Positions 3,165-40,131 of a stretch of DNA of 40,134 bases are shown piece by piece. Every line of letters starts with the position of its first letter. Positions within the stretch are counted from its first letter, which is position 1. The notes under the pieces were generated by a model that made no database searches, was not told where the DNA came from, and was given only the letters and a program-made list of their open reading frames with translations. This DNA is from Deltaproteobacteria bacterium. Its GTDB lineage: Bacteria > Desulfobacterota > Syntrophia > Syntrophales > JAFGHS01. Location: positions 1 to 40,134 of the forward strand of contig JAFGHS010000175.1 of NCBI GenBank assembly GCA_016930075.1, given 5' to 3'. Both the position numbers and the translations under genes were made by a program.

Positions 3165-4706
3165 TCACCCCTTCCCGGATGTCCTGCTCCGGGATTTGCC
3201 TTCACCATGACGGAGAGGCAATGTAACTGTAAAGATGCTTCCCCGGCCTTCCACGCTCTCGACGTCGATGCTCCCATGATGCTGCTTCACGATGGAATAA
3301 CACAGAGGCAAGCCAAGGCCGGCCCCTTTTCCTATGGGAGATGTTGTATAGAAAGGATCAAAAATCTTGACGATATCCCGAGCAGGGATGCCGCAGCCGG
3401 TATCCGCAATCCGGGCATGAACCTGAGAACGGTCCGTTCTTACGTCGATGTCGAGGCGGCCACCAGAGGGCATGGCATGGATGGCATTTAAAAAAATATT
3501 CATAAAGACCTGCTGAAGCAGTGTGCCGACCCCTTCGATCATGACCGGCTTTTTGGGAAAAGAGGCGCGGATTTTGATATTGAAGAGGTTGGCCTGATAC
3601 GTCACGAGGGTCTGAGTCTCCTTGATCAGGGGAACAATGTCGATCAGGGGCTTCCGGGTCGTCGTGGAGGGATGGGCATATTTCAGCAGATTTTCGACGA
3701 TGTCCGAGGTTCGCCGGATGCCTTTGTATATCTTCTCGGCGCACTCACGGCGGAACTCCGGCGTTACATCTTCGTCTAAAAGAAACTGGGCGCTGGATGA
3801 GCAGATGGCCAGGGGGTTCCTGATCTCATGGGCAATGCCGCCTGCCATGACCCCGAGAGCGGCAAATTTCTGCGATTGATACATCTCCAGTTCATATTTT
3901 TGATGCTCCGTCAAATCCCGGCCTATGGCCACGATGCCCGTCGTCCGGTTATCGCTGTCCTTCAGGGGAGAAAAAACCCAGGAAACGGGGATCAATGCGC
4001 CCTTACGGGTCAGCAAGGGGCATTCTTTCATCCGGGTGAGGTCGCGGGCATCGGTATGACGAAGAATCTCCTCAATGTCGCTGCGGTCTTCCTCGGCGAA
4101 AAGGTAGGCGAATCGGAGTTTCGCGGCTTCTGCCGGCAAATAACCGGAAAGCCTTTCCGCCGCTGGGTTCCATGTCAAAATCATGCCTTTTTTATCCACG
4201 GAGACAATGAGGTCGCTGGCGCTCTCCACAACGCCGGCCAGATGCCGTTCCATTCGCCGCATCTCTTCCATGAGATGCGCCTGTTCCGTCACATCGTTTA
4301 CCAGAATAAGGGTTCCTTCAACACGGTTCTCCCGGATAAAAGGCAGGAGGCGGTAATAGAAAAAGCGGACGGGCATTCCTGCGGCGCGATAGGTCATGCG
4401 CTCCCATTTGGATGGTTGTATATTCACAATGACCTGACGAATGCGCTCGACAATATCCATCTGGTCGATGAGGTCCGAGGGGAATATCTCTTCAAGGCGA
4501 CGGCCGATAGTTTCTTCTGTGGTCTTTTGGCTGTATTCCAGAACGGAGCGGTTTACCGAAATAATGCGCAAATGCTTGTCGACGAGGAGGACGGCTGAGG
4601 GAATGGCGTCAAGAAGCATGGTGTAGAGATGTTTGTATCTGCCTGAATGTTCGCGCCTTTCAGAAACAGTGGGCTTCGTTTTCACACCGACTTTTTTTTC
4701 TGTCAT
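3165..4706 (-). CDS. Cytoplasmic PAS-PAS sensor histidine kinase (NtrB/AtoS-like HisKA + HATPase_c)
   Basis: H-box AHEIRNPL. G-boxes DTGCGIP and GKGAGLGL. Two PAS-like segments and no TM helices. I prefer the ATG at 4704-4706 (MTEKK...), which has an AAGGA SD, over the TTG at 4742 used by the ORF track. It lies downstream of and on the same strand as the sigma54 activator. Confidence 0.9.
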   Translation of the reverse strand: MTEKKVGVKTKPTVSERREHSGRYKHLYTMLLDAIPSAVLLVDKHLRIISVNRSVLEYSQKTTEETIGRRLEEIFPSDLIDQMDIVERIRQVIVNIQPSKWERMTYRAAGMPVRFFYYRLLPFIRENRVEGTLILVNDVTEQAHLMEEMRRMERHLAGVVESASDLIVSVDKKGMILTWNPAAERLSGYLPAEAAKLRFAYLFAEEDRSDIEEILRHTDARDLTRMKECPLLTRKGALIPVSWVFSPLKDSDNRTTGIVAIGRDLTEHQKYELEMYQSQKFAALGVMAGGIAHEIRNPLAICSSSAQFLLDEDVTPEFRRECAEKIYKGIRRTSDIVENLLKYAHPSTTTRKPLIDIVPLIKETQTLVTYQANLFNIKIRASFPKKPVMIEGVGTLLQQVFMNIFLNAIHAMPSGGRLDIDVRTDRSQVHARIADTGCGIPARDIVKIFDPFYTTSPIGKGAGLGLPLCYSIVKQHHGSIDVESVEGRGSIFTVTLPLRHGEGKSRSRTSGKG

Positions 4707-4800
4707 GTGTTTTTTCCTTATGTCCGGCGAACAGGCCGTCAAATCCTTCTTTATGAAAGGGGCTTTCCTGCAATTGTCTCAATAGAAAAAAATATCCGCG

Positions 4801-6228
4801 TCATTCTGCCTGTGTCTCGTCGTCATCTCTGCCGATTTGCTCAATGCCGTACTTCTTTGCCTTTGTGTGAATGGTTTTGTAATCGACCCGCAACAATCTT
4901 GCCGCACGGGCCTTGTTGCCGCCGGTAAATTTGAGCACCTCCGTGAGCACCTCTTTTTCCACGGCAAGCACGCTCTGCTGGACAATCTCGCTTAAGGAGG
5001 CATTCTTCCAGGGCGTTCCCTGAATTTTCGGGGAAAAGGCCATGCCCGGCGTTGCCGCCCGCTTGATATTGAGATCCTTTTCGGTGATGACGTCGACGGC
5101 CACCAGGGCCGCCCGCCGGATTACCGAGCGAAGCTGGCGCACGTTTCCCGGCCAGTTGTATGACATCAGTTTTTCCACCGCCTCGTCCGTGAATCCGGTA
5201 ATCGTTTTTTCCAGTTCTGCATTGGCCGAATCAAGAAAACGTTTGGCCAGATAAGGGATATCATCTTTTCTTTCGCGGAGAGCGGGAATGTGGATGGTAA
5301 ACTCGCTTAAGCGATAATAAAGATCGCTGCGAAACTCCTCGCGCAGCACCATTTCCTGGAGGTCCTGGTTGGTGGCCACAATGAGCCGGAGATCGACCGG
5401 CACGGCCTTGACGCCGCCTACCCGGTAGATCTTCCGGTCCTGGAGGACCCGCAGGCACTTTGCCTGGGAACCGGCGGGCATGTTACCAATTTCATCCATA
5501 AGAAGGGAGCCGCCGTGGGCCAGTTCAAATTTCCCCAGCTTTTGTCGCTCCGCTCCGGTGAACGATCCCTTTTCATGACCGAACAATTCACTCTCCAGGA
5601 GGTTTTCGGGAATGGCGCCGCAATCGACGGCCAGGAAAGGTCCCTTCGCACGGGGGCTGTCGTCGTGAATGGCCCTGGCGACCAGTTCTTTTCCCGTGCC
5701 CGTTTCGCCGAGAATGACTACGGAAAAATCGGATTTTGCCACACGGTGAATCTCCGCCACCAGGCGGGCGACCTTGTCGCTCGGCCCCATTTGCTCGATG
5801 AGGCTGTAGTTGCCGCTGTAACGGGTATCGATGGATTTTATGTTCTTCTTTAACTGTCTCTCCGCCAGGGCGCGGCGAACGATCCAGAGCACTTCGTCAT
5901 TATCGAAGGGTTTGGAAAGGTAATCATAAGCCCCTTCCTTCATGGCCGTAACGGCTTGACGGCTTTCGGCGTATGCCGTAATCAGGATCACAGGCAGATC
6001 ATTGTCGATCTGCTTGATTTTTTTGAGGACCTCCATGCCGTCAAGACCCGGCATGCGCACGTCGAGGAGGACGGCATCCGGTTTTTCGGAGAACAGCTTC
6101 TGCATGGCTTCCCGTCCGTCCGAAGCGGTGAAGACCCGGAAACCGTCCTTTTTGAGGAGAAGCCTCAGAATATTCCTGATTTCTTCCTCGTCATCGACAA
6201 CGAGGATGCCTGTGTCCTGCTCCGTCAC
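4801..6228 (-). CDS. Sigma54-dependent response regulator, NtrC/AtoC family (REC + AAA+ sigma54-interaction + Fis-type HTH)
   Basis: N-terminal ILVVDDEEEIRNIL...DAVLLDVRMPGLDG receiver. Walker A GETGTGKE. GAFTGA-type loop ESELFGHEKGSFTGA. C-terminal HTH ARLLRVDYKTIHTKAKKYGI. The first possible start is a GTG at 6226-6228, immediately preceded by an in-frame TAA. Confidence 0.92.
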   Translation of the reverse strand: MTEQDTGILVVDDEEEIRNILRLLLKKDGFRVFTASDGREAMQKLFSEKPDAVLLDVRMPGLDGMEVLKKIKQIDNDLPVILITAYAESRQAVTAMKEGAYDYLSKPFDNDEVLWIVRRALAERQLKKNIKSIDTRYSGNYSLIEQMGPSDKVARLVAEIHRVAKSDFSVVILGETGTGKELVARAIHDDSPRAKGPFLAVDCGAIPENLLESELFGHEKGSFTGAERQKLGKFELAHGGSLLMDEIGNMPAGSQAKCLRVLQDRKIYRVGGVKAVPVDLRLIVATNQDLQEMVLREEFRSDLYYRLSEFTIHIPALRERKDDIPYLAKRFLDSANAELEKTITGFTDEAVEKLMSYNWPGNVRQLRSVIRRAALVAVDVITEKDLNIKRAATPGMAFSPKIQGTPWKNASLSEIVQQSVLAVEKEVLTEVLKFTGGNKARAARLLRVDYKTIHTKAKKYGIEQIGRDDDETQAE

Positions 6229-10800: not shown

Positions 10801-10850
10801 GACAAAAATTTATCACGGGCATGCAACCTTTTCCATGGCGGGAGGTCATT

Positions 10851-11807
10851 ATGAGTAATGAAAGATACATGGATGACGAGACCTTGCGGCAGATTCAATT
10901 ATTCCGGTATGTGGACTTCGATGCGGTAAGGGGCTTGATTGACACCTGTATGACCGTCACGTTGCAGGCTGAAGAAATTCTTCTCACGCCGGGCGATATG
11001 AACAGCACGGTTTATCTGTTGGTGTCGGGCCGCTTAAGGGTGCATCTCAATTCTTTGGACGACGAACCGATCATGATCGGCGAAGGCGAGAGCGTGGGAG
11101 AGATGTCGGTGATCGATCACCAGCCCGTTTCCGCTTACGTCGTTGCCGATGAACCTTGCGTCTTGCTTGCCATGAATGAAGAAGCCCTCTGGTCTCTCGT
11201 CAGATCCTCTCATGCCGCAGCCTGTAATCTGTTGTTTACGCTCACCGGCAGGTTGAGAAGCACCGATAAGCTGATCAATGGAGACAATCTTGCCCTGGAA
11301 GACGTCTACTCGCACTATTGCAGCGTCGATGCCCTTACGGGGCTTCACAGCCGTTACTGGATCGACAATATGTTCGCCCGCCTCTTCAGCCGGTCTTTAA
11401 ATAACAGCGAGCCCATGTCCGTCATTTTGATTGATATTGATAAGTTTACACAATTCAACGAATTGTACGGCTCCACTCAAGGCGACCGCATCCTTTACTA
11501 CATGGCCCATACATTGACGGCGAATCTGCTGCCGACGGAAATCATTGCCCGCTCGGGGGATGATGAATTTTTGGTCCTGTTGCCGGGGTGGGGAATCGAC
11601 AATGCAAGGCTGGTAGCCGAACGTTTGCTGAATGCCGTCGTCAATACGGTTCCGGCAATGCCGGACGGTACGGTCATGCCTCATCCGACCATTTCGGTGG
11701 GTATTGCCCAGATGCAGCCGGAGCAAACGATTGACCAGCTCATTGCTGCGGCGGAAGACGCCCTTTCCCGCGCCAGGATGATCGGGGGAAACAGCATATC
11801 GGAGTAG
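10851..11807 (+). CDS. Cyclic-nucleotide-binding (cNMP/CAP-like) domain fused to a GGDEF domain whose signature is degenerate (SGDDEF)
   Basis: The N-terminal beta-roll region has ...GDMNSTVYLLVSGRLRV...GEGESVGEMSVI... as in CAP/cNMP-binding domains. The C-terminal GGDEF fold (LTGLHSRYW..., DIDKFTQFNELYG) carries RSGDDEF where the active-site motif is normally RxGGDEF, so the second Gly is replaced by Asp. I prefer the ATG at 10851, which has a GGAGG SD, over 10821. Confidence 0.85.
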   Translation: MSNERYMDDETLRQIQLFRYVDFDAVRGLIDTCMTVTLQAEEILLTPGDMNSTVYLLVSGRLRVHLNSLDDEPIMIGEGESVGEMSVIDHQPVSAYVVADEPCVLLAMNEEALWSLVRSSHAAACNLLFTLTGRLRSTDKLINGDNLALEDVYSHYCSVDALTGLHSRYWIDNMFARLFSRSLNNSEPMSVILIDIDKFTQFNELYGSTQGDRILYYMAHTLTANLLPTEIIARSGDDEFLVLLPGWGIDNARLVAERLLNAVVNTVPAMPDGTVMPHPTISVGIAQMQPEQTIDQLIAAAEDALSRARMIGGNSISE

Positions 11808-11907: not shown

Positions 11908-12381
11908 GTGAACATGATGAATCTGTGCTTCATATATCAGAGGATGCGCATATTTTTAACGGTTGCTGCAGCCGTCATAATACTGACAGCGATCATAAGC
12001 CCCGATACCGGCTGCTGCGGCGACGAACGGTTATCGGCGCCCTGGGATTTCAACCATGGGGCTGAAGCTGAGGAGAAAGACACAGCCCCGGAAACAAAAC
12101 CATCGATCGGCGGCGCTCTTTTGATCGGCGCCGTCAGGTTTTACCAAAACCACCTGTCGCCGGTTATCGGCGACAGGTGCCCCATGTACCCATCCTGTTC
12201 GGCATACAGCATCCAGGCTATCAGAAAACACGGTTTTTTCATGGGATGGCTAATGACGGCAGACAGGCTGATACATGAAAATACGGAAATGGATTTAGCG
12301 CCCTTGATCAGGGTCAAGGATGAATTCCGCCGTTATGATCCGGTCTCGGGTAACGACTTCTGGTGGTACAAGCAGCAATAA
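11908..12381 (+). CDS. yidD: YidD-family membrane protein insertion efficiency factor-like protein, with an N-terminal TM extension and a C-terminal tail
   Basis: Core motif RFYQNHLSPVIGDRCPMYPSCSAYSIQAIRKHG matches the YidD (hemolytic-domain) signature R-F-Y-Q...C-x-F/Y-x-P-S-C-S-x-Y. At 157 aa it is roughly twice the usual length. The start is uncertain because there is no clear SD. Confidence 0.7.
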   Translation: MNMMNLCFIYQRMRIFLTVAAAVIILTAIISPDTGCCGDERLSAPWDFNHGAEAEEKDTAPETKPSIGGALLIGAVRFYQNHLSPVIGDRCPMYPSCSAYSIQAIRKHGFFMGWLMTADRLIHENTEMDLAPLIRVKDEFRRYDPVSGNDFWWYKQQ

Positions 12382-14271: not shown

Positions 14272-14841
14272 ATGACCGCATTGGAAATCGTCTACATTAT
14301 ATGTTTTGTCTTTGGTCTGGCCTACGCCGTCATATCAACCGTTTTTGGGGGAATACATGCCGACGGCGGTTTTGACGCCCCGGGCGACGCTTCCGGTTCC
14401 ATGCATGCCGATATTGGACATGACAGCGGAACCATGCATTTCTCGCCCCTCAGCCCTGTCGTTATCGCCATGTTTCTCACCGCATTCGGGGCAGCAGGCA
14501 TGATATGCCTGAAAGCCTTTAAATTGCCGATTTATTATGGATTAACCATTGCCGTTCTCGTCGGCCTCGCCGTTGCCGCCGTAACTTTTTTCATTTTCGT
14601 TACGCTGTTCAGCAAAACGCAGGGCAGCAGCGAATCCAATGTTGCATCGATCATCGGCAAGGAAGCAGAAGTCATCACCCCCATCCCGGCAGACGGCGTC
14701 GGAGAAATTGCCTATATATCCAAGGGTGCGAGATACACAGCCCCGGCGCGATCAGCTCTGCAGACGGATATAAGATCGCACACCATCGTTACGGTTGATA
14801 AAATTGTCGGCAATATGTTTATCGTTAAAGCGTCGGAATAA
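14272..14841 (+). CDS. NfeD-family membrane protein (short form; flotillin/stomatin-associated), OB-fold C-terminus
   Basis: N-terminal TM helices and a C-terminal beta domain (VGEIAYISKGARYTAPARS...IVTVDKIVGNMFIVKASE), as in YuaF/NfeD. I prefer the ATG at 14272 with an AAGGAGG SD 9 nt upstream over the TTG at 14266. A flotillin gene lies immediately downstream. Confidence 0.8.
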   Translation: MTALEIVYIICFVFGLAYAVISTVFGGIHADGGFDAPGDASGSMHADIGHDSGTMHFSPLSPVVIAMFLTAFGAAGMICLKAFKLPIYYGLTIAVLVGLAVAAVTFFIFVTLFSKTQGSSESNVASIIGKEAEVITPIPADGVGEIAYISKGARYTAPARSALQTDIRSHTIVTVDKIVGNMFIVKASE

Positions 14842-14882
14842 TCTTACGTACATATTTAAAAGCGGAAAGGAGTAGGTTCACA

Positions 14883-16346
14883 ATGGCTGAATACATCGGT
14901 ATTTTTGGAAGTTATGGATGGGTTGCGCTGGGAACGATTGCGGTAGTCATCGTACTGATCCTGTTGCTCCGGCTGTACGGCGATCGTTACACCAAGGTCG
15001 GCCCCAATCAGGTCCTTATTGTTTCCGGTCTGAGGCATAGGACGACGGAAGGACAGGACGTCGGTTTCAGATTGTTGAAGGGCGGCGGTACATTTGTCTG
15101 GCCCATATTTGAAAAGGCTGAGTTACTTTCCCTGGAATTGTTGACACTGGATGTGCGGTTGAAAGAGGTTTATACCATAACCGGTGTTTCGATAAATGTC
15201 GATGGCGTAGCCCAGGTCAAGATCAAAGGCGAAGATCGCTCCATCCGCACAGCCGCCGAGCGGTTTCTCGGAAAAACAGAGGAACAGATAAAAAGCATCG
15301 CCCTGCAAACCGTTGAGGGTCATTTGCGGGCGATTGTCGGCACCTTGAGTGTTGAGGATATCTACAAAAACCGGGATGTATTTGCCCAGAAAGTGCAGGA
15401 AGTGTCGGCGGGAGACCTGGCCAATATGGGGCTGGCAATAGATTCCTTTACGGTTCGCGACATTAAAGATGACCACGGCTATCTGGATGCCTTGGGAAAA
15501 CCGCGCGTTGCGCAGGTTAAGCGGGATGCCATTATTGCCCAGGCGGAAGCGGATCGCGATTCGATGATCCGCAGTTCTCAGGCCAGTCAGGCCGGTCAGG
15601 AGGCGAAATTTCTGGCAGACACAAAGATCGCGGAGGCAAATCAGAACTTCGAGGTCAGTAAGGCGTCTTATCAGATGAATATCAATCAGCGAAAGGCCGA
15701 AGCTGATCTGGCCTATGATCTTCAGAGATACAAAACGAATCAAGCCGTCAAGGCCGAAGAAATCCAGGTGACCGTTATCGAGAAGGAGCGAATGATAACC
15801 GTCCAGGAAAGAGAAATCACGCGCCGGCAGAAGGAATTGGAAGCAACGATATCCAAGCCCGCCGATGCGGAGAAATACAGAATCGAAACGCTGGCCAACG
15901 CCGAGAAGTATAAAACCATGACTGAAGCGGAAGGCCGGGCCAACGCCTTGAAGAATATCGGCATCGGGGAGGCGGAAGCGACGCGCGCCAAAGGTCTGGC
16001 GCAGGCCAATGTCATCCAGGCGACCGGTCTTTCCGAAGCGGAAGCCATGGCCAAAAAGGCCGAATCCTGGAAGGCTTATAACCAGGCGGCGGTCACCCAG
16101 TTGATCATTGAAAAATTGCCGGAACTGGCCCGCGCCATCGCGGAGCCGCTGGCCAAGACGGAAAAGATCATCGTCATCAGTCAGGGAGGCGATTCCGCCG
16201 GCGCCTCGAAAATAACGCAGGACGTAACCAACGTCATTGCCCAGTTGCCGCCTGTCGTTGAGGCGCTCACCGGCATGAAGCTGGAAGACCTGGTCGGAAA
16301 ACTTCCCAAGCTGGGAGGCGAAGCAAAAAAAACTGAGGGTAAATAG
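14883..16346 (+). CDS. Flotillin (SPFH/band-7 family, FloT/YqiK-like) with an Ala/Glu-rich coiled-coil
   Basis: N-terminal TM/hairpin (GWVALGTIAVVIVLILLL). SPFH core. A long EA-rich heptad region (AEAD..QAEADRD..EAKFLAD...). AAAGGAG SD. Confidence 0.9.
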   Translation: MAEYIGIFGSYGWVALGTIAVVIVLILLLRLYGDRYTKVGPNQVLIVSGLRHRTTEGQDVGFRLLKGGGTFVWPIFEKAELLSLELLTLDVRLKEVYTITGVSINVDGVAQVKIKGEDRSIRTAAERFLGKTEEQIKSIALQTVEGHLRAIVGTLSVEDIYKNRDVFAQKVQEVSAGDLANMGLAIDSFTVRDIKDDHGYLDALGKPRVAQVKRDAIIAQAEADRDSMIRSSQASQAGQEAKFLADTKIAEANQNFEVSKASYQMNINQRKAEADLAYDLQRYKTNQAVKAEEIQVTVIEKERMITVQEREITRRQKELEATISKPADAEKYRIETLANAEKYKTMTEAEGRANALKNIGIGEAEATRAKGLAQANVIQATGLSEAEAMAKKAESWKAYNQAAVTQLIIEKLPELARAIAEPLAKTEKIIVISQGGDSAGASKITQDVTNVIAQLPPVVEALTGMKLEDLVGKLPKLGGEAKKTEGK

Positions 16347-16350
16347 CAGA

Positions 16351-17613
16351 TTGATTTATTTCAATGAAAAGACGATTCATAAACGTGTCCACATGGCATT
16401 AGCGTGCCTTCTGACGTTCTTTTTCATGACAGGATTTTGTCGGCCTGCCGATGTTGCAGCACAACCTCTTATTGCGACTGATCTCGTATTCATGACGGAG
16501 CAGTATCCGCCCTTTAACTTTGAAGAAAAAGGGCGGCTGCAGGGGATAGCCGTCGATCTGCTCGAAGAGATATTGAAAAAGGCAAATGTCGATTTCAACC
16601 GGAACCAAATTTGCCTGACGAGTTGGACGGAAGGTTACCGAAGGGCCCTGAAGGAGAAAAATACGATTGTATTTTCTACGACCAGAACGCCGGAGCGGGA
16701 AAAGCTCTTCCAGTGGGTCGGCCCCATTGCTCCAACGAAAATCGTCATCATCGCCCGGAAGGACCGATCGTTAAAAATACATGCGTTCGATGATTTAAAG
16801 AAGTTAAAAATCGCCGCACTGCGGGATGACATCGGTGAACAGCTCCTGATGCGGGGAGGGATCAAAAGCAGGGCTATTATCGTCAAGGAAAAAGCTGAAG
16901 ACGTCATCCGCATGCTTGAGGCAGGAACCGCCGACGCCTGGGCCTATGAAGAAACGGCAGGACTCTGGCTGATCAAGCACATGGCGGCCGATCCGGGAAA
17001 TTTTGCGGGTCTATATCGTCTCGATGAAGGCGAGCTCTACTTTGCCGTTAATCGGAAGACGCCGGAAGAAGCGGTCAAAAAGATGCAGAACGCGTTGAAC
17101 GATCTCAAAAACGAAAAGGCGATGGACGGTTTCAGTGTTTATGAAAGAATCTTCGATTACTACCTCAAGCCGCGCTACATCAAAGACCGGATCACCGATG
17201 AACAGGCGATGCAAATGGTTCAACGCGTCGCCAGGGATTTGGCCGGGGACGCTTCCGGGACGATCAGCAGGATCAACGCCGGAGAGCATCCCTACAGGGA
17301 CAGGGATAATCCCGCATTTTACGTTTTTATGTACGATACGGATGTAACGATGATCGCTCACGCCGATAATATCAAAATGGTAGGCAGAAACTTCAAGGGC
17401 AAGACGGATGTGAACGGCAAAGCTTTCCGGGATGAAATTGTCGCCAAAGCGCTGCAAAACGGGAGCGGGTGGGAGGATTACATCTATACCAACCCCAGCG
17501 AAAGCGGCCTTTACTACAAGACGACCTACTTCATGACGGCAAGGGGAAGCGACGGCCGGATGTACATCGTCTGTTCGGGAAAGTTCAAAGATCATCAGGG
17601 ATTATTCCATTAA
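16351..17613 (+). CDS. Periplasmic sensor-like protein with no transmitter domain: SBP_bac_3 (amino-acid-type solute-binding) domain fused to a single Cache-like domain
   Basis: After the signal sequence, the N-terminal half has SBP_bac_3 features (LVFMTEQYPPFNFEEKGRLQGIAVDLLEEILKKANVD...). The C-terminal ~130 aa (YVFMYDTDVTMIAHADN...GKAFRDEIV...GWEDYIYTNP...YYKTTYF) resemble sCache_2. The TTG at 16351 gives a basic n-region followed by a hydrophobic core. The alternative ATG at 16393 has no obvious SD. Confidence 0.8.
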   Translation: MIYFNEKTIHKRVHMALACLLTFFFMTGFCRPADVAAQPLIATDLVFMTEQYPPFNFEEKGRLQGIAVDLLEEILKKANVDFNRNQICLTSWTEGYRRALKEKNTIVFSTTRTPEREKLFQWVGPIAPTKIVIIARKDRSLKIHAFDDLKKLKIAALRDDIGEQLLMRGGIKSRAIIVKEKAEDVIRMLEAGTADAWAYEETAGLWLIKHMAADPGNFAGLYRLDEGELYFAVNRKTPEEAVKKMQNALNDLKNEKAMDGFSVYERIFDYYLKPRYIKDRITDEQAMQMVQRVARDLAGDASGTISRINAGEHPYRDRDNPAFYVFMYDTDVTMIAHADNIKMVGRNFKGKTDVNGKAFRDEIVAKALQNGSGWEDYIYTNPSESGLYYKTTYFMTARGSDGRMYIVCSGKFKDHQGLFH

Positions 17614-17643
17614 GACGTCTGCTTTTTTTGTGAGAAGGGTCCA

Positions 17644-19437
17644 ATGAAAATAAAAGTCCTCGCTGTCGAAGATGAGATCATCAATCTGAAGCTGCTGAAA
17701 GCCATCTTTGAAGCTGAAGGCTGGGATGTCCTGACGGCTGAAAACGGCAAGGACGCCCTGGAGATTGCGCGGGCTGAACTGCCCGACCTGATCTTGTCCG
17801 ACATCCTCATGCCGGTCATGGACGGCTATGCCTTATGCCGTCAATGCAAATCTGACGAGACGTTGAAGCATATCCCGTTTGTCTTTTACACAGCCACCTA
17901 TACGGAACCGCAGCATGAACAGTTTGCGCTGGATATCGGCGTGGACAGATTTATTCGCAAGCCTTTGGAACCGCATACGCTGGTAGAAATCCTGATGGAT
18001 GTCCTGGGAGAGAAGAAAACGGTCGCCCCCGCTGTCTCGAAACCCCTGGGGGAAGAGATGGAGTTTTTCAGACGTCACAATGAAGTTCTGTTCGGCAAGC
18101 TTGAACAGAAAATGCTGGACCTGGAGGCGGCAAATCAGGAACTCAGGGCATTGGAGGAAAAATATCGCCTCAGTTTTGATCATGTAACGGATATTATCTG
18201 CATGATCGGCACGGATCTCAGGATTTTAAGCATAACCCCGAGCGTGGAGAGGATGCTGGGGTACAAATCACAGGATTTTATCGATAAAATTCTTTCTGAT
18301 TTAGGCCATATCTTTACGCCGGAATCATTAAAACAGGCGATAACCAAAATCAACCTGTTGTTAAAGGGTGAAACCATTGCAATGGCGATTCATGAGTTTA
18401 TCGACCGGGACGGACACGTCAAGATCGGCGAAGTCGGCGGATCTCCCATCATGCGCGACGGAAAAACCACCGGCGCTGTTTTCGTTGTCCGCGATATCAC
18501 GACGCGCAGGCGGGCGGAGGACGCATTGGCGGAGGAGAGGCAGAGGCTTGCCTACATACTCGAGGGCACCAACGTCGGTACATGGGAGTGGAATGTTCAG
18601 ACAGGAGAAATGATATGCAATAACCGTTGGGCGGAGATCATCGGATATACAATGGATGAGCTTGCTCCGGTCTCAATCGATACCTGGGTCAGGTTCATTC
18701 ATCCGGATGACCTCAATATCATGATTGATTTGCTTGATCAGCATTTCAAGAAGAAATTATTGTACTACGAATTGGAAGCGCGCATTCGCCATAAAAGCGG
18801 GGATTGGGTCTGGGTGCTCGATAACGGCAAAGTTGTGTCATGGACGGATGACGGGACACCGCTTATCATGTCCGGCACGCATCAGGACATTACCCGGCGG
18901 AAGCTGGCTGAAGAGCAGATACAGCATATGGCCACCCATGACGGATTGACCGATCTGCCGAGTCTGAGACTGGCCAGAGACCGGCTGTCCATGTCCCTCA
19001 GCATGGCTCGCCGGCAGCGAAACATGACGGCCGTGATGTTTCTCGATCTGGATGAGTTCAAAGCGGTCAATGATACTTTCGGCCATGATGCCGGGGACGA
19101 TGTGCTGAAAGAGGTAGCCAAGCGATTGCTTTCCTGCATTCGTGAAACCGATACGGCCGCTCGCGTCGGAGGAGATGAATTTCTTGTTGTTGCAACCGGA
19201 CTTCATGATGCTGAGAATGCTGTGCAGATAGCGGAGAATATCATCCGTCTTGTGTCCCAGCCGATTGTCATCGACAGCCGGCAAACCGTTGTGACTGCCA
19301 GCCTCGGCATTTCTCTTTTCCCCCAAAACGGCGGCGACGTCGAGGGCCTGATCAAACTGGCAGACGACGCCATGTATGAAGTCAAGAAGTCAACCCGAAA
19401 CGGATACGGCTTTGCCAAAACCGTCCACGCCCCTTAG
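17644..19437 (+). CDS. Response-regulator diguanylate cyclase: REC-PAS-PAS-GGDEF
   Basis: Receiver domain (KVLAVEDEIINLKLL...DLILSDILMPVMDG...K). Two PAS segments. A canonical GGDEF domain with RVGGDEFLVV and a DxLT motif. A GAGAAGGG SD follows the upstream stop by 30 nt. Confidence 0.9.
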   Translation: MKIKVLAVEDEIINLKLLKAIFEAEGWDVLTAENGKDALEIARAELPDLILSDILMPVMDGYALCRQCKSDETLKHIPFVFYTATYTEPQHEQFALDIGVDRFIRKPLEPHTLVEILMDVLGEKKTVAPAVSKPLGEEMEFFRRHNEVLFGKLEQKMLDLEAANQELRALEEKYRLSFDHVTDIICMIGTDLRILSITPSVERMLGYKSQDFIDKILSDLGHIFTPESLKQAITKINLLLKGETIAMAIHEFIDRDGHVKIGEVGGSPIMRDGKTTGAVFVVRDITTRRRAEDALAEERQRLAYILEGTNVGTWEWNVQTGEMICNNRWAEIIGYTMDELAPVSIDTWVRFIHPDDLNIMIDLLDQHFKKKLLYYELEARIRHKSGDWVWVLDNGKVVSWTDDGTPLIMSGTHQDITRRKLAEEQIQHMATHDGLTDLPSLRLARDRLSMSLSMARRQRNMTAVMFLDLDEFKAVNDTFGHDAGDDVLKEVAKRLLSCIRETDTAARVGGDEFLVVATGLHDAENAVQIAENIIRLVSQPIVIDSRQTVVTASLGISLFPQNGGDVEGLIKLADDAMYEVKKSTRNGYGFAKTVHAP

Positions 19438-19472
19438 TTTCACAAATATCCAACATGGGATATTTGTGAAAC
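19437..19472. terminator. Perfect 15-bp inverted repeat with a 6-nt loop between convergent genes; probable bidirectional terminator or protein-binding palindrome
   Basis: GTTTCACAAATATCC-aacatg-GGATATTTGTGAAAC sits exactly between the GGDEF gene stop (TAG at 19435-19437) and the VIT-vWA gene stop (19497). There is no flanking U-tract. Confidence 0.45.
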
Positions 19473-19496
19473 TAAGGACAAACCCCGATAGAACGG

Positions 19497-21842
19497 CTAC
19501 GATATCGTCATCGATACGGTTGCCGCAGCCTCATTTCCGCCGACCGTTGCCGGGAAGCGCCACTTTCTAACCTGATCCATCAAGCACGTATGGTATTTTG
19601 CATCCCTGATCTTGCCGGATATGATCTCCACATTTTTGACCGTACCGTCCGGGTTGATGGTCAGAGTGATTTTTATTATTCCTTGATAATTTAAACCCGA
19701 CAAGCACTTTTCTATATTACTGATCTCAACTTCCGCTACTTTGATAATGTCTTCCTTCGTTAAGCCTTTTTCAACCGTAGCGCTGATAATACTCACCTTT
19801 CTTGTTTTATCCTTTTTCTCGTGAGAAGAAGACTTAACTTCTTGCACGGCATCTGCCTCAGAAAGACAATTTTCCGTTTTTACCCTCATGCTGCCGATCA
19901 TGCTTTTTTGTACGGCCGGAGCCGCAGCGTAGTTTCCGCGGCCGCCGACCGCATAATCCGAAACACCTTCGGGCAGCGGCAGGGGCTTCTTGACGGTTGT
20001 CCATTTCCCGTTCACGTTGCGCACTTCATTATCCACGGCCACAAAGGATGTGTATGCGGTCAGAAGATTATAGCCGAGGCCCAGTTCGGTAATTTCCTTT
20101 ACCCGCTTGCTGTCGTTGCGGAGGTTGTTGTAATCGGATAATAACATGATGCGATGGCGCGCCCAGAGATATTTCAGTGCCGTATTGTCTGGGGATGCCC
20201 GATAATTTTCCACCTTAATCGCTTCTGAATACTTACCCTCGCCGGAAATGCCGCACAACGTAATCGTTCCTTTGGGATTGCCGCGCCATTTGCCGAAAAC
20301 GAGGACCGGACGTTCGGCCAATACATCAGGAATTGCCACCGGCTCTACATCATAGACATCAAACCCGTTGAAACGGACCTTCGCCTGCGTTAAGACCGGC
20401 GACTGGATCATTTTGCGGAAACGTTCCGCCTCGGCCTGCGCCGTATCCGGTTTTGTGATGATAAAGGGCTCGCCCATGCCGACGTGCGCCATGCCTTCGA
20501 TAAGGTGGCGGTTGACGCTGGAGCCGATGCCGAAGGCAAACATATTGGCTTTGTTTAAGTTATTACGGATCAGGTCAAATGCTTCTTCCTCGACGCTGAC
20601 ATAGCCGTCGGTGACAATGACAACGGTCCGGGAAAAATCATCGTCCTTCTTAAGCGATAGGGCGCGCTTGAGCGCAGGCAGCAGTTCCGTGCCGCCGCCG
20701 CCCTGCTGGCGTTCAATGGTATTGATGGCCCTCTGAATGTTTTCCCTGGTTGCAGGCAGTGATTCCTCCGCCATCAAAGAAGAGGCGCCGGAAAAAAGCA
20801 GAACATTGAATTTGTCCGTCTTACGGAGATTGCCGATCAGATTGGTCAGGAGCTTTTTGGAAATTTCCAGAGGAAAGCCATGCATCGAACCGGAAACATC
20901 CACAATAAAGATATACTCACGCCCCGGAATATGGCCGCTTACGACTCTTCTCGGCGGCTGCATCATGAGGGCAAAGAAGTTTTCCTTTTCACCCCGCAAA
21001 AGCAACAGACCGGTCTGAATTTTATGGCCGTCGAGACGGTAGCGCAGACTGTAATCGCGATTGCCGCTGCGGGATTCGGTTTTATCCAAAGACACCTTTG
21101 CCTGTGATGCGTTCTCATAGACCGTCTTCACTTTATGTGATGAACAGGTTAAATCTTTAATGGGCATTCCGGCGTTAATGGCCACGGAAATATTGAAGGT
21201 GGTCGTGGATAATTCACCCTGGCGCAGATAAGGATTTTCCACCCAATGCCCGGAAGGCGAAGCGTTTGACGCCTTTTGATTGGAATAGCGTGGTCCTACG
21301 ACGGTGGGGTAAACAAATTCATAGACCCGATCTGTGGGAACAAGCAGTTCCGTATATTTGAGTTCAACCTTGATTTCATCGCCCGGCATGATGTTGGCGA
21401 CATTCATCTGAAAGACATTGGGGCGCTGCTGCTCCAGTAGGGAAGCGTTCTTCCCCGCATCCCGGGCCTGCTCATAATCGCGCCGCGCCTCATCACGCTT
21501 TTTGATTTTCGCCTCAATTACCCTCTTGCCGATCGTCATTTTCATGCCGTAAACGGCGGCGCGGGTGGATGCCGGGAAAACATAAATGGCTTCCATCGGC
21601 TTTTCCCCTGCATTTTTATAGACCTGTGTGACAATCACGTCCGCGATGACGCCGGAAATATTGACGGAAGCGTGAGTGGATTTCAAGGGCAGCCGATCCG
21701 CCGCCGGATTGTCGCTGTTGACAAAGAAATAGGGGGATAAAGTCCGGTCCTCGGATATCTGCTGCTGACTGAAAGCCTGCGCGCAGCAACTAACGGATAC
21801 GAATGCCAAAACGACAGTTAACCAACATTTAACCTTTTTCAT
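19497..21842 (-). CDS. Secreted VIT (vault inter-alpha-trypsin) + von Willebrand factor A protein with a C-terminal TonB_C-like domain
   Basis: Signal peptide MKKVKCWLTVVLAFVSVSCCAQA. VIT region (SVNISGVIADVIVTQVYKN...). vWA MIDAS motif DVSGSM plus downstream T and D residues. The C-terminal ~90 aa (GIIKITLTINPDGTVKNVEIISG...LMDQVRKWRFPATVGG..ATVSMTIS) resemble the TonB C-terminal domain. I place the start at 21840-21842 with a GGAGG SD 7 nt upstream, not at 21878. Confidence 0.85.
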   Translation of the reverse strand: MKKVKCWLTVVLAFVSVSCCAQAFSQQQISEDRTLSPYFFVNSDNPAADRLPLKSTHASVNISGVIADVIVTQVYKNAGEKPMEAIYVFPASTRAAVYGMKMTIGKRVIEAKIKKRDEARRDYEQARDAGKNASLLEQQRPNVFQMNVANIMPGDEIKVELKYTELLVPTDRVYEFVYPTVVGPRYSNQKASNASPSGHWVENPYLRQGELSTTTFNISVAINAGMPIKDLTCSSHKVKTVYENASQAKVSLDKTESRSGNRDYSLRYRLDGHKIQTGLLLLRGEKENFFALMMQPPRRVVSGHIPGREYIFIVDVSGSMHGFPLEISKKLLTNLIGNLRKTDKFNVLLFSGASSLMAEESLPATRENIQRAINTIERQQGGGGTELLPALKRALSLKKDDDFSRTVVIVTDGYVSVEEEAFDLIRNNLNKANMFAFGIGSSVNRHLIEGMAHVGMGEPFIITKPDTAQAEAERFRKMIQSPVLTQAKVRFNGFDVYDVEPVAIPDVLAERPVLVFGKWRGNPKGTITLCGISGEGKYSEAIKVENYRASPDNTALKYLWARHRIMLLSDYNNLRNDSKRVKEITELGLGYNLLTAYTSFVAVDNEVRNVNGKWTTVKKPLPLPEGVSDYAVGGRGNYAAAPAVQKSMIGSMRVKTENCLSEADAVQEVKSSSHEKKDKTRKVSIISATVEKGLTKEDIIKVAEVEISNIEKCLSGLNYQGIIKITLTINPDGTVKNVEIISGKIRDAKYHTCLMDQVRKWRFPATVGGNEAAATVSMTIS

Positions 21843-21996
21843 ACATAACCTCCTCTGTAAGATATTTCGTATTATCAAAATGTTCGGCCTTTTTTTTCGA
21901 TTTCAGACTATTAGACAAAGGAGGCCGCAAAAAAGTTCCCGGTTTTTTTTAAGCCCCGTTTTCCTGCTTTTTCTCCATATCTTTCTTCTTTCTTCC

Positions 21997-22065: not shown

Positions 22066-22420
22066 GGGGGCGTCACGGTTTCGACGGGGATAATTGAAGC
22101 TGTAGCAGCGTACCGAGGTTCCTGCCGGCCTCGTTAAAAAGGCGGGAAACATATAATCGCAGACAAATACGATTACGCTTTAGCCGCTTAAGACGGCTAA
22201 CGTCCTCCTGGTTTTTTCTGCCGGGTCAGATGAGGGCGTCATTTAGACAGAATAGCTGATCTCTCCTGCCTGGCGGGGGAAAGGCGAATTCTTACAGGCT
22301 AGCGACGGATCAATCCCGCCTCCGGGAGTTTTCCGCTGCGAATTCAAATCGGAGGATACGTACGTAGAAACTGCAGTGGAAGATTTTCGGACGCGGGTTC
22401 GACTCCCGCCGCCTCCACCA
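22066..22420 (+). ncRNA. ssrA: tmRNA (SsrA), standard one-piece
   Basis: 5' GGGGGCGUCACGGUUUCGACGGGG and 3' GGACGCGGGUUCGACUCCCGCCGCCUCCACCA form the tRNA-like acceptor and T-arm. The internal tag reading frame GCA GAC AAA TAC GAT TAC GCT TTA GCC GCT TAA gives (A)ADKYDYALAA-stop. Confidence 0.9.
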
Positions 22421-29138: not shown

Positions 29139-29215
29139 TGGTGGGTCGTGCGGGATTTGAACCCGCGACCAACGGATTAAAAGTCCGCTGCTCTACCGAA
29201 CTGAGCTAACGACCC
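29139..29215 (-). tRNA. tRNA-Lys (anticodon UUU)
   Basis: The reverse complement reads GGGTCGTTAGCTCAGTTCGGTAGAGCAGCGGACTTTTAATCCGTTGGTCGCGGGTTCAAATCCCGCACGACCCACCA. It has the cloverleaf with a 7-bp acceptor stem, the anticodon loop CTTTTAA and an encoded CCA. It is nearly identical in layout to E. coli tRNA-Lys. Confidence 0.9.
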
Positions 29216-38562: not shown

Positions 38563-40131
38563 ATGAGAATAAAAGATATACATGTCACGAACGCTTTGCC
38601 CGTTGAATTATTTGACGTAGAAGATATTTCAGACATCGTTGTAATTGCTGGCCCTAATGGTGTCGGGAAAACTCGACTTGTTTCCGCACTTATTTCTCAT
38701 TTCCAGAATTTGAACGGTAAGAACATAAAGTTCAAAATTCAAGCCACTTCAGATGATGAAATCGCTGCATGGGGGAAGCGAGAACTTGATACCAGTGTGC
38801 AGCAAGATGCCGATTTACTAACACAGATGCTTCAGCAGAATCGACAACGACGAAATCTCAAAAGCAGCGTATTTTACTATGAGAGTAATCGAAGCATCCA
38901 AAAAATCCAACCACTATCTTATCAGTGGGATATGCCTGACCCTTGGGAAGAAAAAATATCTTGGAATTTCACGTTTGGCGGATTAGCTAGCAGGTTTCAG
39001 GATACGCTTCACGCAATTTTTAAAAAAATTCAAACTCAAAAAACGTCTATCGCAAATAGGGCAATAAGTTTGAAACAAGAAGGGTACGAGTCAATGAAAC
39101 TCGAGTTCTCAGACCCCCTCGATCCTTTCAGGGAAGCTTTCTTCAAACTTCTCGGTCCGAAACGACTCCTAAAGGCGGATGTTCAAGGCAACACTCTCCG
39201 TTTCGAACACAAGGGAAAAGAATACGACATTAATGCATTAAGCTCTGGAGAACGGGAAGTTCTCAATATCGCGTTTGATTTTTTACTTCGTAGCCCTTCC
39301 GATTGCATCGTTTTCGTAGACGAACCCGAACTGCATCTTCACCCGGAGCTATCTTCCAAATTGATCAGCACGCTAAAGAGCGCTGGAAAAAACAATCAAT
39401 TCATACTTTGCTCGCATTCACCGGACATAATTTCGTCCTCTCTTGAAGATACGGTGATCTTTCTAACCCCACCTGGTGAGAACAGCGTAAACCAAGCAGT
39501 AGTGCTTAAGCCAGATGATCAGTCAACAGAAGCGCTCAATCGTCTGGGACATTCGGTGGGTGTCGTCTCACTTGGAAAGAAGATCGTCCTAATAGAAGGC
39601 ACTAAAGCAAGTCTGGACAAACAAACATATGTGCATATTCTAAAGAATCGATTCCCAGAGCTGGTTCTTCTTCCTGGCGGCGGTAAGGGAAATCTCGCGG
39701 CATTTGATCAGGTCGCCGAAAAAGTTTTGACCAAAACCATGTGGGGAATTGATTTTTACATGCTCGCAGACCGCGACGCGTTGGGAGACAGTTCAACGAT
39801 GCCGCGGTCAGTTGGTGGGCGTTTCAGAACGCTTAGCAAATACCACTTAGAAAATTACTTTCTTGATGCGAATATTCTCGCTCGTGTGTTCCAAATCATG
39901 GAGCCTGCCGATTCCTGGCTCTGCAAACCAGACGGAATAGATATCGTATTGCGAGAGATAGCGTGCGAACACATTCCTTATGCATCAGTTCTTATTGTGG
40001 CAAACGAAAGGCGGCGAGCTGCGGGAAATGTGGATGTGATGCTAAAGCGGAACGTGTCAATGAAAATGAGACACTTCCATAAAGAATTTAGTGTCGCAAA
40101 GGATCACTATTTTCCGGCACCGGTTTATTGA
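38563..40131 (+). CDS. OLD-family (overcoming lysogenization defect) / GajA-PARIS-like ABC-type ATPase fused to a TOPRIM-like nuclease domain
   Basis: Walker A AGPNGVGKT. ABC signature LSSGEREV. Walker B CIVFVDEPELHLHPE. H-loop FILCSHSP. C-terminal TOPRIM-like elements IVLIEGTKA (Glu) and FYMLADRDAL (DxD). The gene and its 5' flank are visibly AT-richer than the rest of the window. TATAAT at 38528-38533. Confidence 0.85.
   Translation: MRIKDIHVTNALPVELFDVEDISDIVVIAGPNGVGKTRLVSALISHFQNLNGKNIKFKIQATSDDEIAAWGKRELDTSVQQDADLLTQMLQQNRQRRNLKSSVFYYESNRSIQKIQPLSYQWDMPDPWEEKISWNFTFGGLASRFQDTLHAIFKKIQTQKTSIANRAISLKQEGYESMKLEFSDPLDPFREAFFKLLGPKRLLKADVQGNTLRFEHKGKEYDINALSSGEREVLNIAFDFLLRSPSDCIVFVDEPELHLHPELSSKLISTLKSAGKNNQFILCSHSPDIISSSLEDTVIFLTPPGENSVNQAVVLKPDDQSTEALNRLGHSVGVVSLGKKIVLIEGTKASLDKQTYVHILKNRFPELVLLPGGGKGNLAAFDQVAEKVLTKTMWGIDFYMLADRDALGDSSTMPRSVGGRFRTLSKYHLENYFLDANILARVFQIMEPADSWLCKPDGIDIVLREIACEHIPYASVLIVANERRRAAGNVDVMLKRNVSMKMRHFHKEFSVAKDHYFPAPVY

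Follow-up and report, generated by a model that had tools for sequence, protein, structure and literature searches.

An NfeD-flotillin operon probably fused to genes for an SBP-Cache protein and a diguanylate cyclase in a Syntrophales bacterium

In Bacillus subtilis, the flotillin gene floT (yuaG) is co-transcribed with yuaF (nfeD2), and FloT colocalizes with NfeD2 at more than 96% (PMC4928834); the yqiJ-yqiK pair of Escherichia coli likewise places the gene of an NfeD-type membrane protein immediately upstream of a flotillin gene. Substrate-binding proteins (SBPs) that stimulate receptors for the turnover of cyclic di-GMP (c-di-GMP) are described for NspS-MbaA of Vibrio cholerae and ScrB-ScrC of Vibrio parahaemolyticus, with ScrB belonging to the SBP_bac_3 family (PMC8050422). 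Here we analyze a cluster of four genes at positions 14272-19437 of a 40,134-nucleotide contig (JAFGHS010000175.1) from a Deltaproteobacteria bacterium of the Syntrophales; this whole stretch is referred to as the window. The cluster encodes an NfeD-like protein (gene 1), a flotillin (gene 2), a protein joining an SBP_bac_3 and an sCache_2 domain (gene 3) and a receiver (REC)-PAS-PAS-GGDEF protein (gene 4). Our results suggest that it is probably a lineage-specific operon fusion of independent modules, in which an NfeD-flotillin pair has been combined with two orphan genes, rather than a dedicated system.

All four open reading frames (ORFs) are present on the plus strand, with the gaps of 41 nt (14841 to 14883), 4 nt (16346 to 16351) and 30 nt (17613 to 17644) that had been noted in the original prediction, which read the cluster as a flotillin-organized signaling unit. 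Gene 1 (14272-14841) encodes a protein of 189 aa with three N-terminal transmembrane (TM) helices and a C-terminal NfeD/OB domain. The product of gene 2 (14883-16346) is a 487-aa flotillin with an N-terminal membrane anchor, an SPFH/Band_7 domain and a C-terminal flotillin domain. Gene 3 (16351-17613) encodes a secreted protein of 420 aa that lacks a TM helix and an output domain, and gene 4 (17644-19437) a soluble response-regulator diguanylate cyclase of 597 aa. As read from the sequence, gene 1 starts with an ATG at 14272, 8 nt 3' of AAGGAGG; gene 2 with an ATG at 14883 preceded by AAGGAG; gene 3 with a TTG at 16351 preceded by GAGGG; and gene 4 with an ATG at 17644. An ATG at 16393 is the sole other in-frame start of gene 3; with it, the signal peptide would lose its basic n-region and the distance to gene 2 would grow to 46 nt. 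The shared direction is not special to these four genes, given that they are the last of a same-strand run of eight that begins at 10821 with genes for a cyclic nucleotide (cNMP)-binding GGDEF protein, a YidD-domain protein, a patatin and a TIM-barrel protein.

The first two genes compare closely with yuaF-floT. Gene 1 itself scores only 19 bits against the Pfam NfeD model (PF01957), below the cut-off of 29.1, and it is assigned to NfeD because 18 of its 25 orthologs match this model and the profile built from the orthologs matches B. subtilis YuaF (2k14, E=9.7e-7). A Kyte-Doolittle scan finds three TM-length segments in gene 1 and one hydrophobic segment, residues 13-31, in gene 2. Gene 2 matches Band_7 (98.7 bits, 5e-28) and Flot (29.2 bits against a cut-off of 27, 1e-6) in Pfam as well as human flotillin-1 (9l3g, E=1.5e-104), so that the SPFH and flotillin domains of FloT are both present. 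However, it reaches 466.5 bits with the NCBIfam FloT model NF058507, under the 700-bit equivalog cut-off. By its domain matches, gene 2 is thus classified as a member of the flotillin family and is not assignable as a FloT equivalog.

To analyze the conservation of the gene order from the flotillin side, we scanned one genome per GTDB species, which gave 53 related loci (individual loci of the comparison sets carry L numbers below), and compared these with all window proteins by tblastn. In 50 of them, the gene directly 5' of flotillin is NfeD, and the other three contigs stop there. The NfeD-flotillin pairing recognized in the original prediction thus stands: on this sequence comparison, genes 1 and 2 are classified as a member of an already known pair that is canonical and autonomous. 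In contrast, neither gene 3 nor gene 4 is present at any of the 53 loci, including the eight Smithella/Smithellaceae-type loci with the closest flotillins (80-85% identical). What lies downstream in these eight loci are genes unrelated to one another; by their translations, they include a TetR-like regulator on the opposite strand (L012, L016), a lipoprotein with a large unassigned ORF (L013), a repeat-rich ORF (L015), an amidohydrolase-like ORF on the opposite strand (L017) and a LemA-like ORF (L019). In the same tblastn comparison, the other neighbors of the cluster in the window were not found either: the patatin and the TIM-barrel protein are absent from all 53 flotillin loci, and none has an adjacent VIT-VWA protein.

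The view from gene 3 is the same. Five context look-ups and a metagenome scan (80 loci) together gave 91 loci with gene 3 relatives; neither flotillin nor NfeD lies near the gene 3 relative in any of them, and none has a GGDEF gene adjacent to it. The contexts are unrelated, with PAS kinases, a sigma-54 activator, heme biosynthesis genes or uvrA as neighbors. At the DNA level, the window is composed of two homology blocks: the first (14427-16315) is common to L012-L019, and the second (16464-17611) is shared with L005-L007 at 85.6%. No relative sharing both blocks was found, and the breakpoint between them coincides with the flotillin stop and the gene 3 start. For gene 4, the homolog search returned no full-length ortholog. 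The four-gene cluster is therefore not a real system beyond this contig. Synteny of all four genes was found in no relative, an outcome that the original prediction itself had named as speaking against it, and its functional reading is not supported. Only the NfeD-flotillin pair recurs in relatives, and the proposed unit therefore looks like a one-off juxtaposition.

In three of the five closest relatives, a canonical intrinsic terminator with a long GC stem and a U-run directly follows flotillin (L012:9485-9530, L016:9460-9505 and L017:9470-9518; z -3.5 to -4.6), and the window has no terminator at the equivalent place. None of the three internal gaps of the cluster contains a hairpin more stable than shuffled sequence (z 0 to 1.2). 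A consensus scan inside the cluster found no terminator in the gaps, with terminator counts near the shuffle expectation, and a scan for sigma-70 consensus sites returned only weak promoter-like matches (9 of 12 positions). No riboswitch or other RNA element was matched in or near the cluster by Rfam. A strong hairpin at 19432-19477 lies where gene 4 meets a convergent gene, and it overlaps the gene 4 stop codon. Its arms form a perfect inverted repeat of 20 bp around a loop of 6 nt; the predicted fold has -31 kcal/mol (z = -9.7), and none of 200 shuffles is as stable. This hairpin is the likely end of the transcription unit. Because it lacks a U-tract, it may act as a terminator in both directions or be a palindrome bound by a protein. 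Co-transcription of genes 1-4, also put forward in the original prediction, is thus plausible, and the sequence would allow transcription to run through from NfeD to gene 4.

In the model we favor, flotillin would oligomerize on the inner face of the membrane and recruit its NfeD partner; in close relatives, the two genes make up a bicistronic operon that ends in an intrinsic terminator. The fusion would have occurred by loss of this terminator or by insertion beside the NfeD-flotillin module. With no such terminator in the window and only 4 nt between the flotillin stop and the start of gene 3, genes 3 and 4 would probably be expressed by read-through. The gene 3 protein would be exported to the periplasm and bind its ligand there, possibly handing it, or a signal, on to a membrane receptor or transporter encoded elsewhere. 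Gene 4 would be phosphorylated at D53 by an unlinked histidine kinase; phosphorylation, together with input from the two PAS domains, would activate c-di-GMP synthesis by the GGDEF domain, and the product would feed back via the RETD I-site. Nothing in this scheme requires flotillin to organize genes 3 and 4.

Several points weigh against a fusion of independent modules. Two-component genes, among them those of a REC-HD_5 protein (L006) and a REC-PAS protein (L066), lie within ~4 kb in five of six distinct contexts of Syntrophales-type gene 3 homologs (at least 66% identical, window included). This hints at a signaling link for gene 3, although the numbers are small and the genomes rich in such genes. 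The 4-nt and 30-nt spacing and the lone hairpin after gene 4 also fit a selected operon. Moreover, the comparison set is without relatives of the same genus or species, and the gene order may be conserved over short evolutionary distances. The readings of ligand, partner and transcription are all computational.

Gene 3 is the part of the cluster of most interest. Pfam confirms the two domains named in the original prediction, SBP_bac_3 (4e-14) and sCache_2 (1.2e-10), and the periplasmic protein without TM helix or output that it had proposed is borne out by the signal peptide, the hydropathy scan and the Pfam matches. The signal peptide (~16351-16461) comprises a basic n-region (K/H/K/R), ALACLLTFFFMTGF and VAA-Q, as read from the sequence; it is followed by the SBP domain (~16489-17127) and the Cache domain (~17185-17586), and the Kyte-Doolittle scan found no TM-length segment in the protein. 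The AlphaFold2 model (pLDDT 88) consists of a two-lobed SBP, a linker, a long N-terminal Cache helix and a five-stranded terminal Cache sheet, and the chain ends 8 residues past the last Cache strand. The best match of the SBP half in the PDB is 3h7m, the PBP-like sensor domain of the Geobacter sulfurreducens histidine kinase HK29s (Foldseek E=1.3e-14, TM-score 0.85 on the target); ArtJ and GlnBP are also matched. The SBP cleft keeps an Arg/Glu pair, R116 and E201, at the positions that clamp the amino acid in GlnH-type proteins. The fold is thus shared with a domain used for sensing in a related bacterial group, but in HK29s it is the periplasmic part of a membrane-bound histidine kinase, whereas gene 3 encodes a free protein.

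The Cache half aligns without gaps to the sCache_2 sensors PscD (5g4y) and Adeh_3718 (4k08). PscD binds C2 and C3 carboxylates via Tyr90, His103, Tyr143 and Lys156 (PMC5062169). These residues correspond to Y324, H337, Y377 and K390 in gene 3, so that the fold and all four carboxylate-bonding residues known from PscD (5G4Y/5G4Z), McpP and Adeh_3718 (4K08) are kept. Across 39 family members, each residue of the tetrad is either invariant or conserved to at least 90%. Two features set the pocket apart from that of PscD: Phe126 is replaced by an Arg conserved in the clade (Arg360), and the flanking Trp residues are replaced by Phe or Tyr. Of 55 stand-alone Cache representatives, 42-47 retain the residues of the tetrad and 48 have the Arg. 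Judged from these residues, the Cache pocket most likely binds a small carboxylate, and the extra conserved Arg points to another anionic or polar group on this ligand. The Cache domain is more strongly conserved across the family than the SBP domain. The sCache_2 domains of PscD, McpP and Adeh_3718 sit between two TM helices in chemoreceptors, whereas that of gene 3 is C-terminal in a secreted protein without a transmitter. We infer that it may serve as a transmitter-independent extracytoplasmic carboxylate-binding module. Gene 3 is thus unlike a classical transport SBP, as it has no transporter linkage, and unlike a classical Cache receptor, as it has no membrane anchor or transmitter.

The family is widespread. 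Homologs of gene 3 come from Syntrophales and Smithellaceae (66-80% identical), Methanothrix, Methanolobus, Methanomicrobiales, Bacteroidota and Melioribacteraceae, and the archaeal and Bacteroidota members have lipobox-like N-termini. The best 120 homologs listed contain SBP_bac_3 and Cache domains only. Variants of the architecture include SBP-Cache-Cache, SBP-SBP-Cache and longer forms, none of which has an output domain. Because the output-less architecture is full-length in more than 100 bacterial and archaeal proteins, we reject the idea of a truncated sensor kinase or pseudogene fragment. The pairing of two known folds without an output is what seems new in this family, which is uncharacterized; genes 1 and 2 and the type of gene 4 are known. 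A literature search found no description of SBP_bac_3-sCache_2 proteins, although absence there is not proof.

An exhaustive HMMER search with the Cache half gave 1060 cluster representatives at E ≤ 1e-3. The Cache relatives among the best matches range from stand-alone proteins of ~160 aa and SBP fusions in either order to tandem arrays with up to 15 matched stretches. Further fusions join the Cache domain to SLH, 5'-nucleotidase_C, a chagasin I42-type inhibitor or a DUF5122 beta-propeller. Relatives of the window's Cache clade (17173-17610) include P0265, P0268, P0284, P0301, P0310, P0311 and P0346, with P0265 reaching 2099 aa and 15 matched stretches. Nine of the best 150 matches, chosen for unexplained extra length, were scanned for added domains; no fusion to a transmitter was seen in these nine, nor among the best 120 homologs and their variants. 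A word-indexed search with the Cache domain returned short Cache-only proteins only. The label "sensor" is therefore uncertain for gene 3, because its Cache clade was never seen fused to a transmitter in the proteins examined.

Around the family, the Pfam census of 77 immediate neighbors returned 94 families, with TetR (5), POR (3) and HATPase_c (3) the most frequent and dCache_1 sensors also at 3, and no ABC transporter permease or ATPase family is among the 25 commonest. The neighbors are thus heterogeneous, and a conserved operon partner could therefore not be named.

Two observations concern the closest relatives. The closest gene 3 homolog (80% aa and 85.6% DNA identity; L005:1-1515 and L006:6757-8373) lies within a few kb of DDE_Tnp_1 and IS66 transposase genes, a possible route for rearrangements around gene 3. 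A recurrent arrangement is seen at L001:5462-7947 and L003:10191-12661, where a PBP_like_2 binding-protein gene overlaps the start of a PAS histidine kinase gene by 4 nt; both pairs adjoin a gene 3 homolog and a MASE11 hybrid kinase, and they look like an SBP-kinase sensing pair.

Gene 4 agrees with the soluble receiver-PAS-PAS-diguanylate cyclase named in the original prediction. Pfam finds Response_reg, two PAS domains and GGDEF (8e-46), and no hydrophobic TM-length segment appears in the Kyte-Doolittle scan. The receiver has E9-D10, D53, T83 and K106; the GGDEF motif is at 509-513, with a RETD I-site five residues upstream (500-503). The catalytic and phospho-acceptor motifs are therefore intact. 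A receiver-controlled GGDEF domain with an RxxD I-site is also found in PleD-type enzymes. However, these are REC-REC-GGDEF proteins, and gene 4, with its two PAS domains in place of the second receiver, scores 216 bits with the PleD equivalog model, below the cut-off of 474. Its best matches (58% identical) cover PAS-PAS-GGDEF only and have CHASE-type or other architectures, whereas its nearest receiver-bearing relatives end in HD domains. By its motifs, gene 4 is thus predicted to be an active, ordinary response-regulator diguanylate cyclase, dependent on an unlinked kinase.

The window offers no evident kinase for it. The only one in the 40-kb contig is a soluble PAS-PAS-HisKA-HATPase protein (3165-4742, minus strand) paired with an NtrC-type sigma-54 activator (pair: 3165-6228, minus strand). 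The contig contains no membrane kinase and no kinase adjoins the cluster, in agreement with the original prediction that a linked kinase is missing. The contig has five signaling genes, including that of the cNMP-binding GGDEF protein (10821-11807, plus strand), and this density raises the chance of fortuitous adjacency.

One alternative leaves flotillin aside and pairs genes 3 and 4 for sensing: the ligand-loaded SBP-Cache protein would activate a TM kinase encoded elsewhere, and gene 4 would be the cognate regulator of this kinase, an analog of NspS-MbaA or ScrB-ScrC with a two-component relay added. The 30-nt gap fits this idea, as do the PAS kinases, the MASE11 hybrid kinase and the REC-HD_5 and REC-PAS proteins near the closest gene 3 homologs and the structural proximity of the SBP domain to the sensor domain 3h7m. 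As in the Vibrio systems, the gene of a periplasmic SBP adjoins that of a c-di-GMP-metabolizing enzyme. But those systems differ from genes 3 and 4 because their enzyme is a membrane receptor: MbaA and ScrC are transmembrane proteins whose periplasmic dCache-like domain receives the SBP, whereas gene 4 is soluble, controlled by phosphorylation and starts with a receiver. Moreover, the Cache domain here sits on the SBP itself, and the pairing is not conserved. It cannot be, because gene 4 has no ortholog, and a GGDEF gene adjoins none of the 91 gene 3 relatives. HATPase_c occurs in only 3 of the 77 immediate neighbors, and proximity to signaling genes is expected by chance because such genes are frequent in these genomes, with five in this contig alone. 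We therefore regard such a pair as unlikely.

An equally doubtful but broader proposal starts from the protein family. Gene 3 would represent a large class of extracytoplasmic Cache proteins, so far undescribed and lacking transmitters, that have a Tyr-His-Tyr-Lys(+Arg) carboxylate pocket in common and occur alone, in tandem or joined to SBP domains or surface modules in syntrophs, methanogens and Bacteroidota, acting as diffusible or lipid-anchored co-receptors or as organic-acid capture proteins; in this contig, it would be wired between the flotillin operon and gene 4 and couple organic-acid sensing to c-di-GMP.

It is very improbable that gene 3 is an ordinary transport SBP that works with an unlinked ABC transporter and carries its Cache domain as an accessory, as the NCBI/JGI annotation of the family ("polar amino acid transport system substrate-binding protein") would have it. 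This annotation is consistent with the SBP_bac_3 fold and with the ligand-clamping Arg and acidic residue kept in the cleft. However, permease and ATPase families are missing from the 25 commonest in the neighbor census, and no ABC transporter gene adjoins gene 3 in the window. The sole ABC_tran-type match in the contig, an AAA_15/AAA_21 ATPase (38563-40131), is ~21 kb away. In addition, the strongest conservation is in the Cache rather than the SBP domain, and members of this Cache clade are also found that lack an SBP domain.

The least probable reading, and a highly unlikely one, is the flotillin-organized unit of the original prediction, in which the SBP-Cache protein would dock onto an unlinked membrane kinase in flotillin microdomains, leading to phosphorylation of gene 4 and c-di-GMP synthesis: the tight spacing without an internal terminator or hairpin, the single strong hairpin after gene 4, the intactness of all parts and the documented stimulation of kinases and GGDEF/EAL receptors by SBPs (PMC8050422) speak for it, but synteny is absent from both sides (0/53 and 0/91), transcription in relatives ends behind flotillin, a membrane kinase is missing from the contig, the Cache clade is fused to non-signaling surface modules and never to transmitters in the proteins examined, and its precedent, FloT-KinC, is contested by a colocalization of only 4%, against the more than 96% of FloT-NfeD2 (PMC4928834). 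We found no paper linking flotillin with diguanylate cyclases, although absence from the literature is not proof.

If true, such a unit would have offered one of the few genomic hints at specific signaling pathways organized by bacterial flotillins. Flotillin and NfeD travel as an autonomous pair, and this hint is therefore removed. The fusion reading also marks the difference from yuaF-floT: here, the terminator of close relatives is gone and the operon continues into two unrelated genes. The interest of the locus is carried mainly by the uncharacterized SBP-Cache and Cache-only clade rather than by the link to flotillin. In Syntrophales, methanogens and Bacteroidota, the proteins that bear the annotation "amino-acid transport substrate-binding" are SBP-Cache fusions without transporter linkage, with a pocket seemingly made for carboxylates. 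Syntrophic and methanogenic communities trade in carboxylates, and the ligands and partners of the SBP-Cache proteins could therefore reveal how organic acids are perceived or captured there.

Other features of the window lie outside the cluster. Convergent to gene 4, a gene at 19497-21878 (minus strand) encodes a 793-aa exported protein with the unusual combination of VIT, VWA and a C-terminal TonB_C domain; three Chloroflexota loci (L045, L050 and L051) also have VIT-VWA relatives with 24-26% identity, at a distance of 6-8 kb from flotillin. The YidD-domain protein (11908-12381, plus strand) is, at 157 aa, roughly double the normal size and is extended at its N-terminus by a hydrophobic and acidic stretch. 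The sole Rfam matches of the window are a transfer-messenger RNA gene (22066-22420, plus strand; tag ADKYDYALAA) and a tRNA-Lys(UUU) gene (29139-29215, minus strand). At the contig end (38001-40134), the GC content falls to 0.42-0.45; the AAA_15/AAA_21 ATPase gene that starts there at 38563 is AbiEii-like/OLD-type, and this stretch may be a defense or mobile segment.

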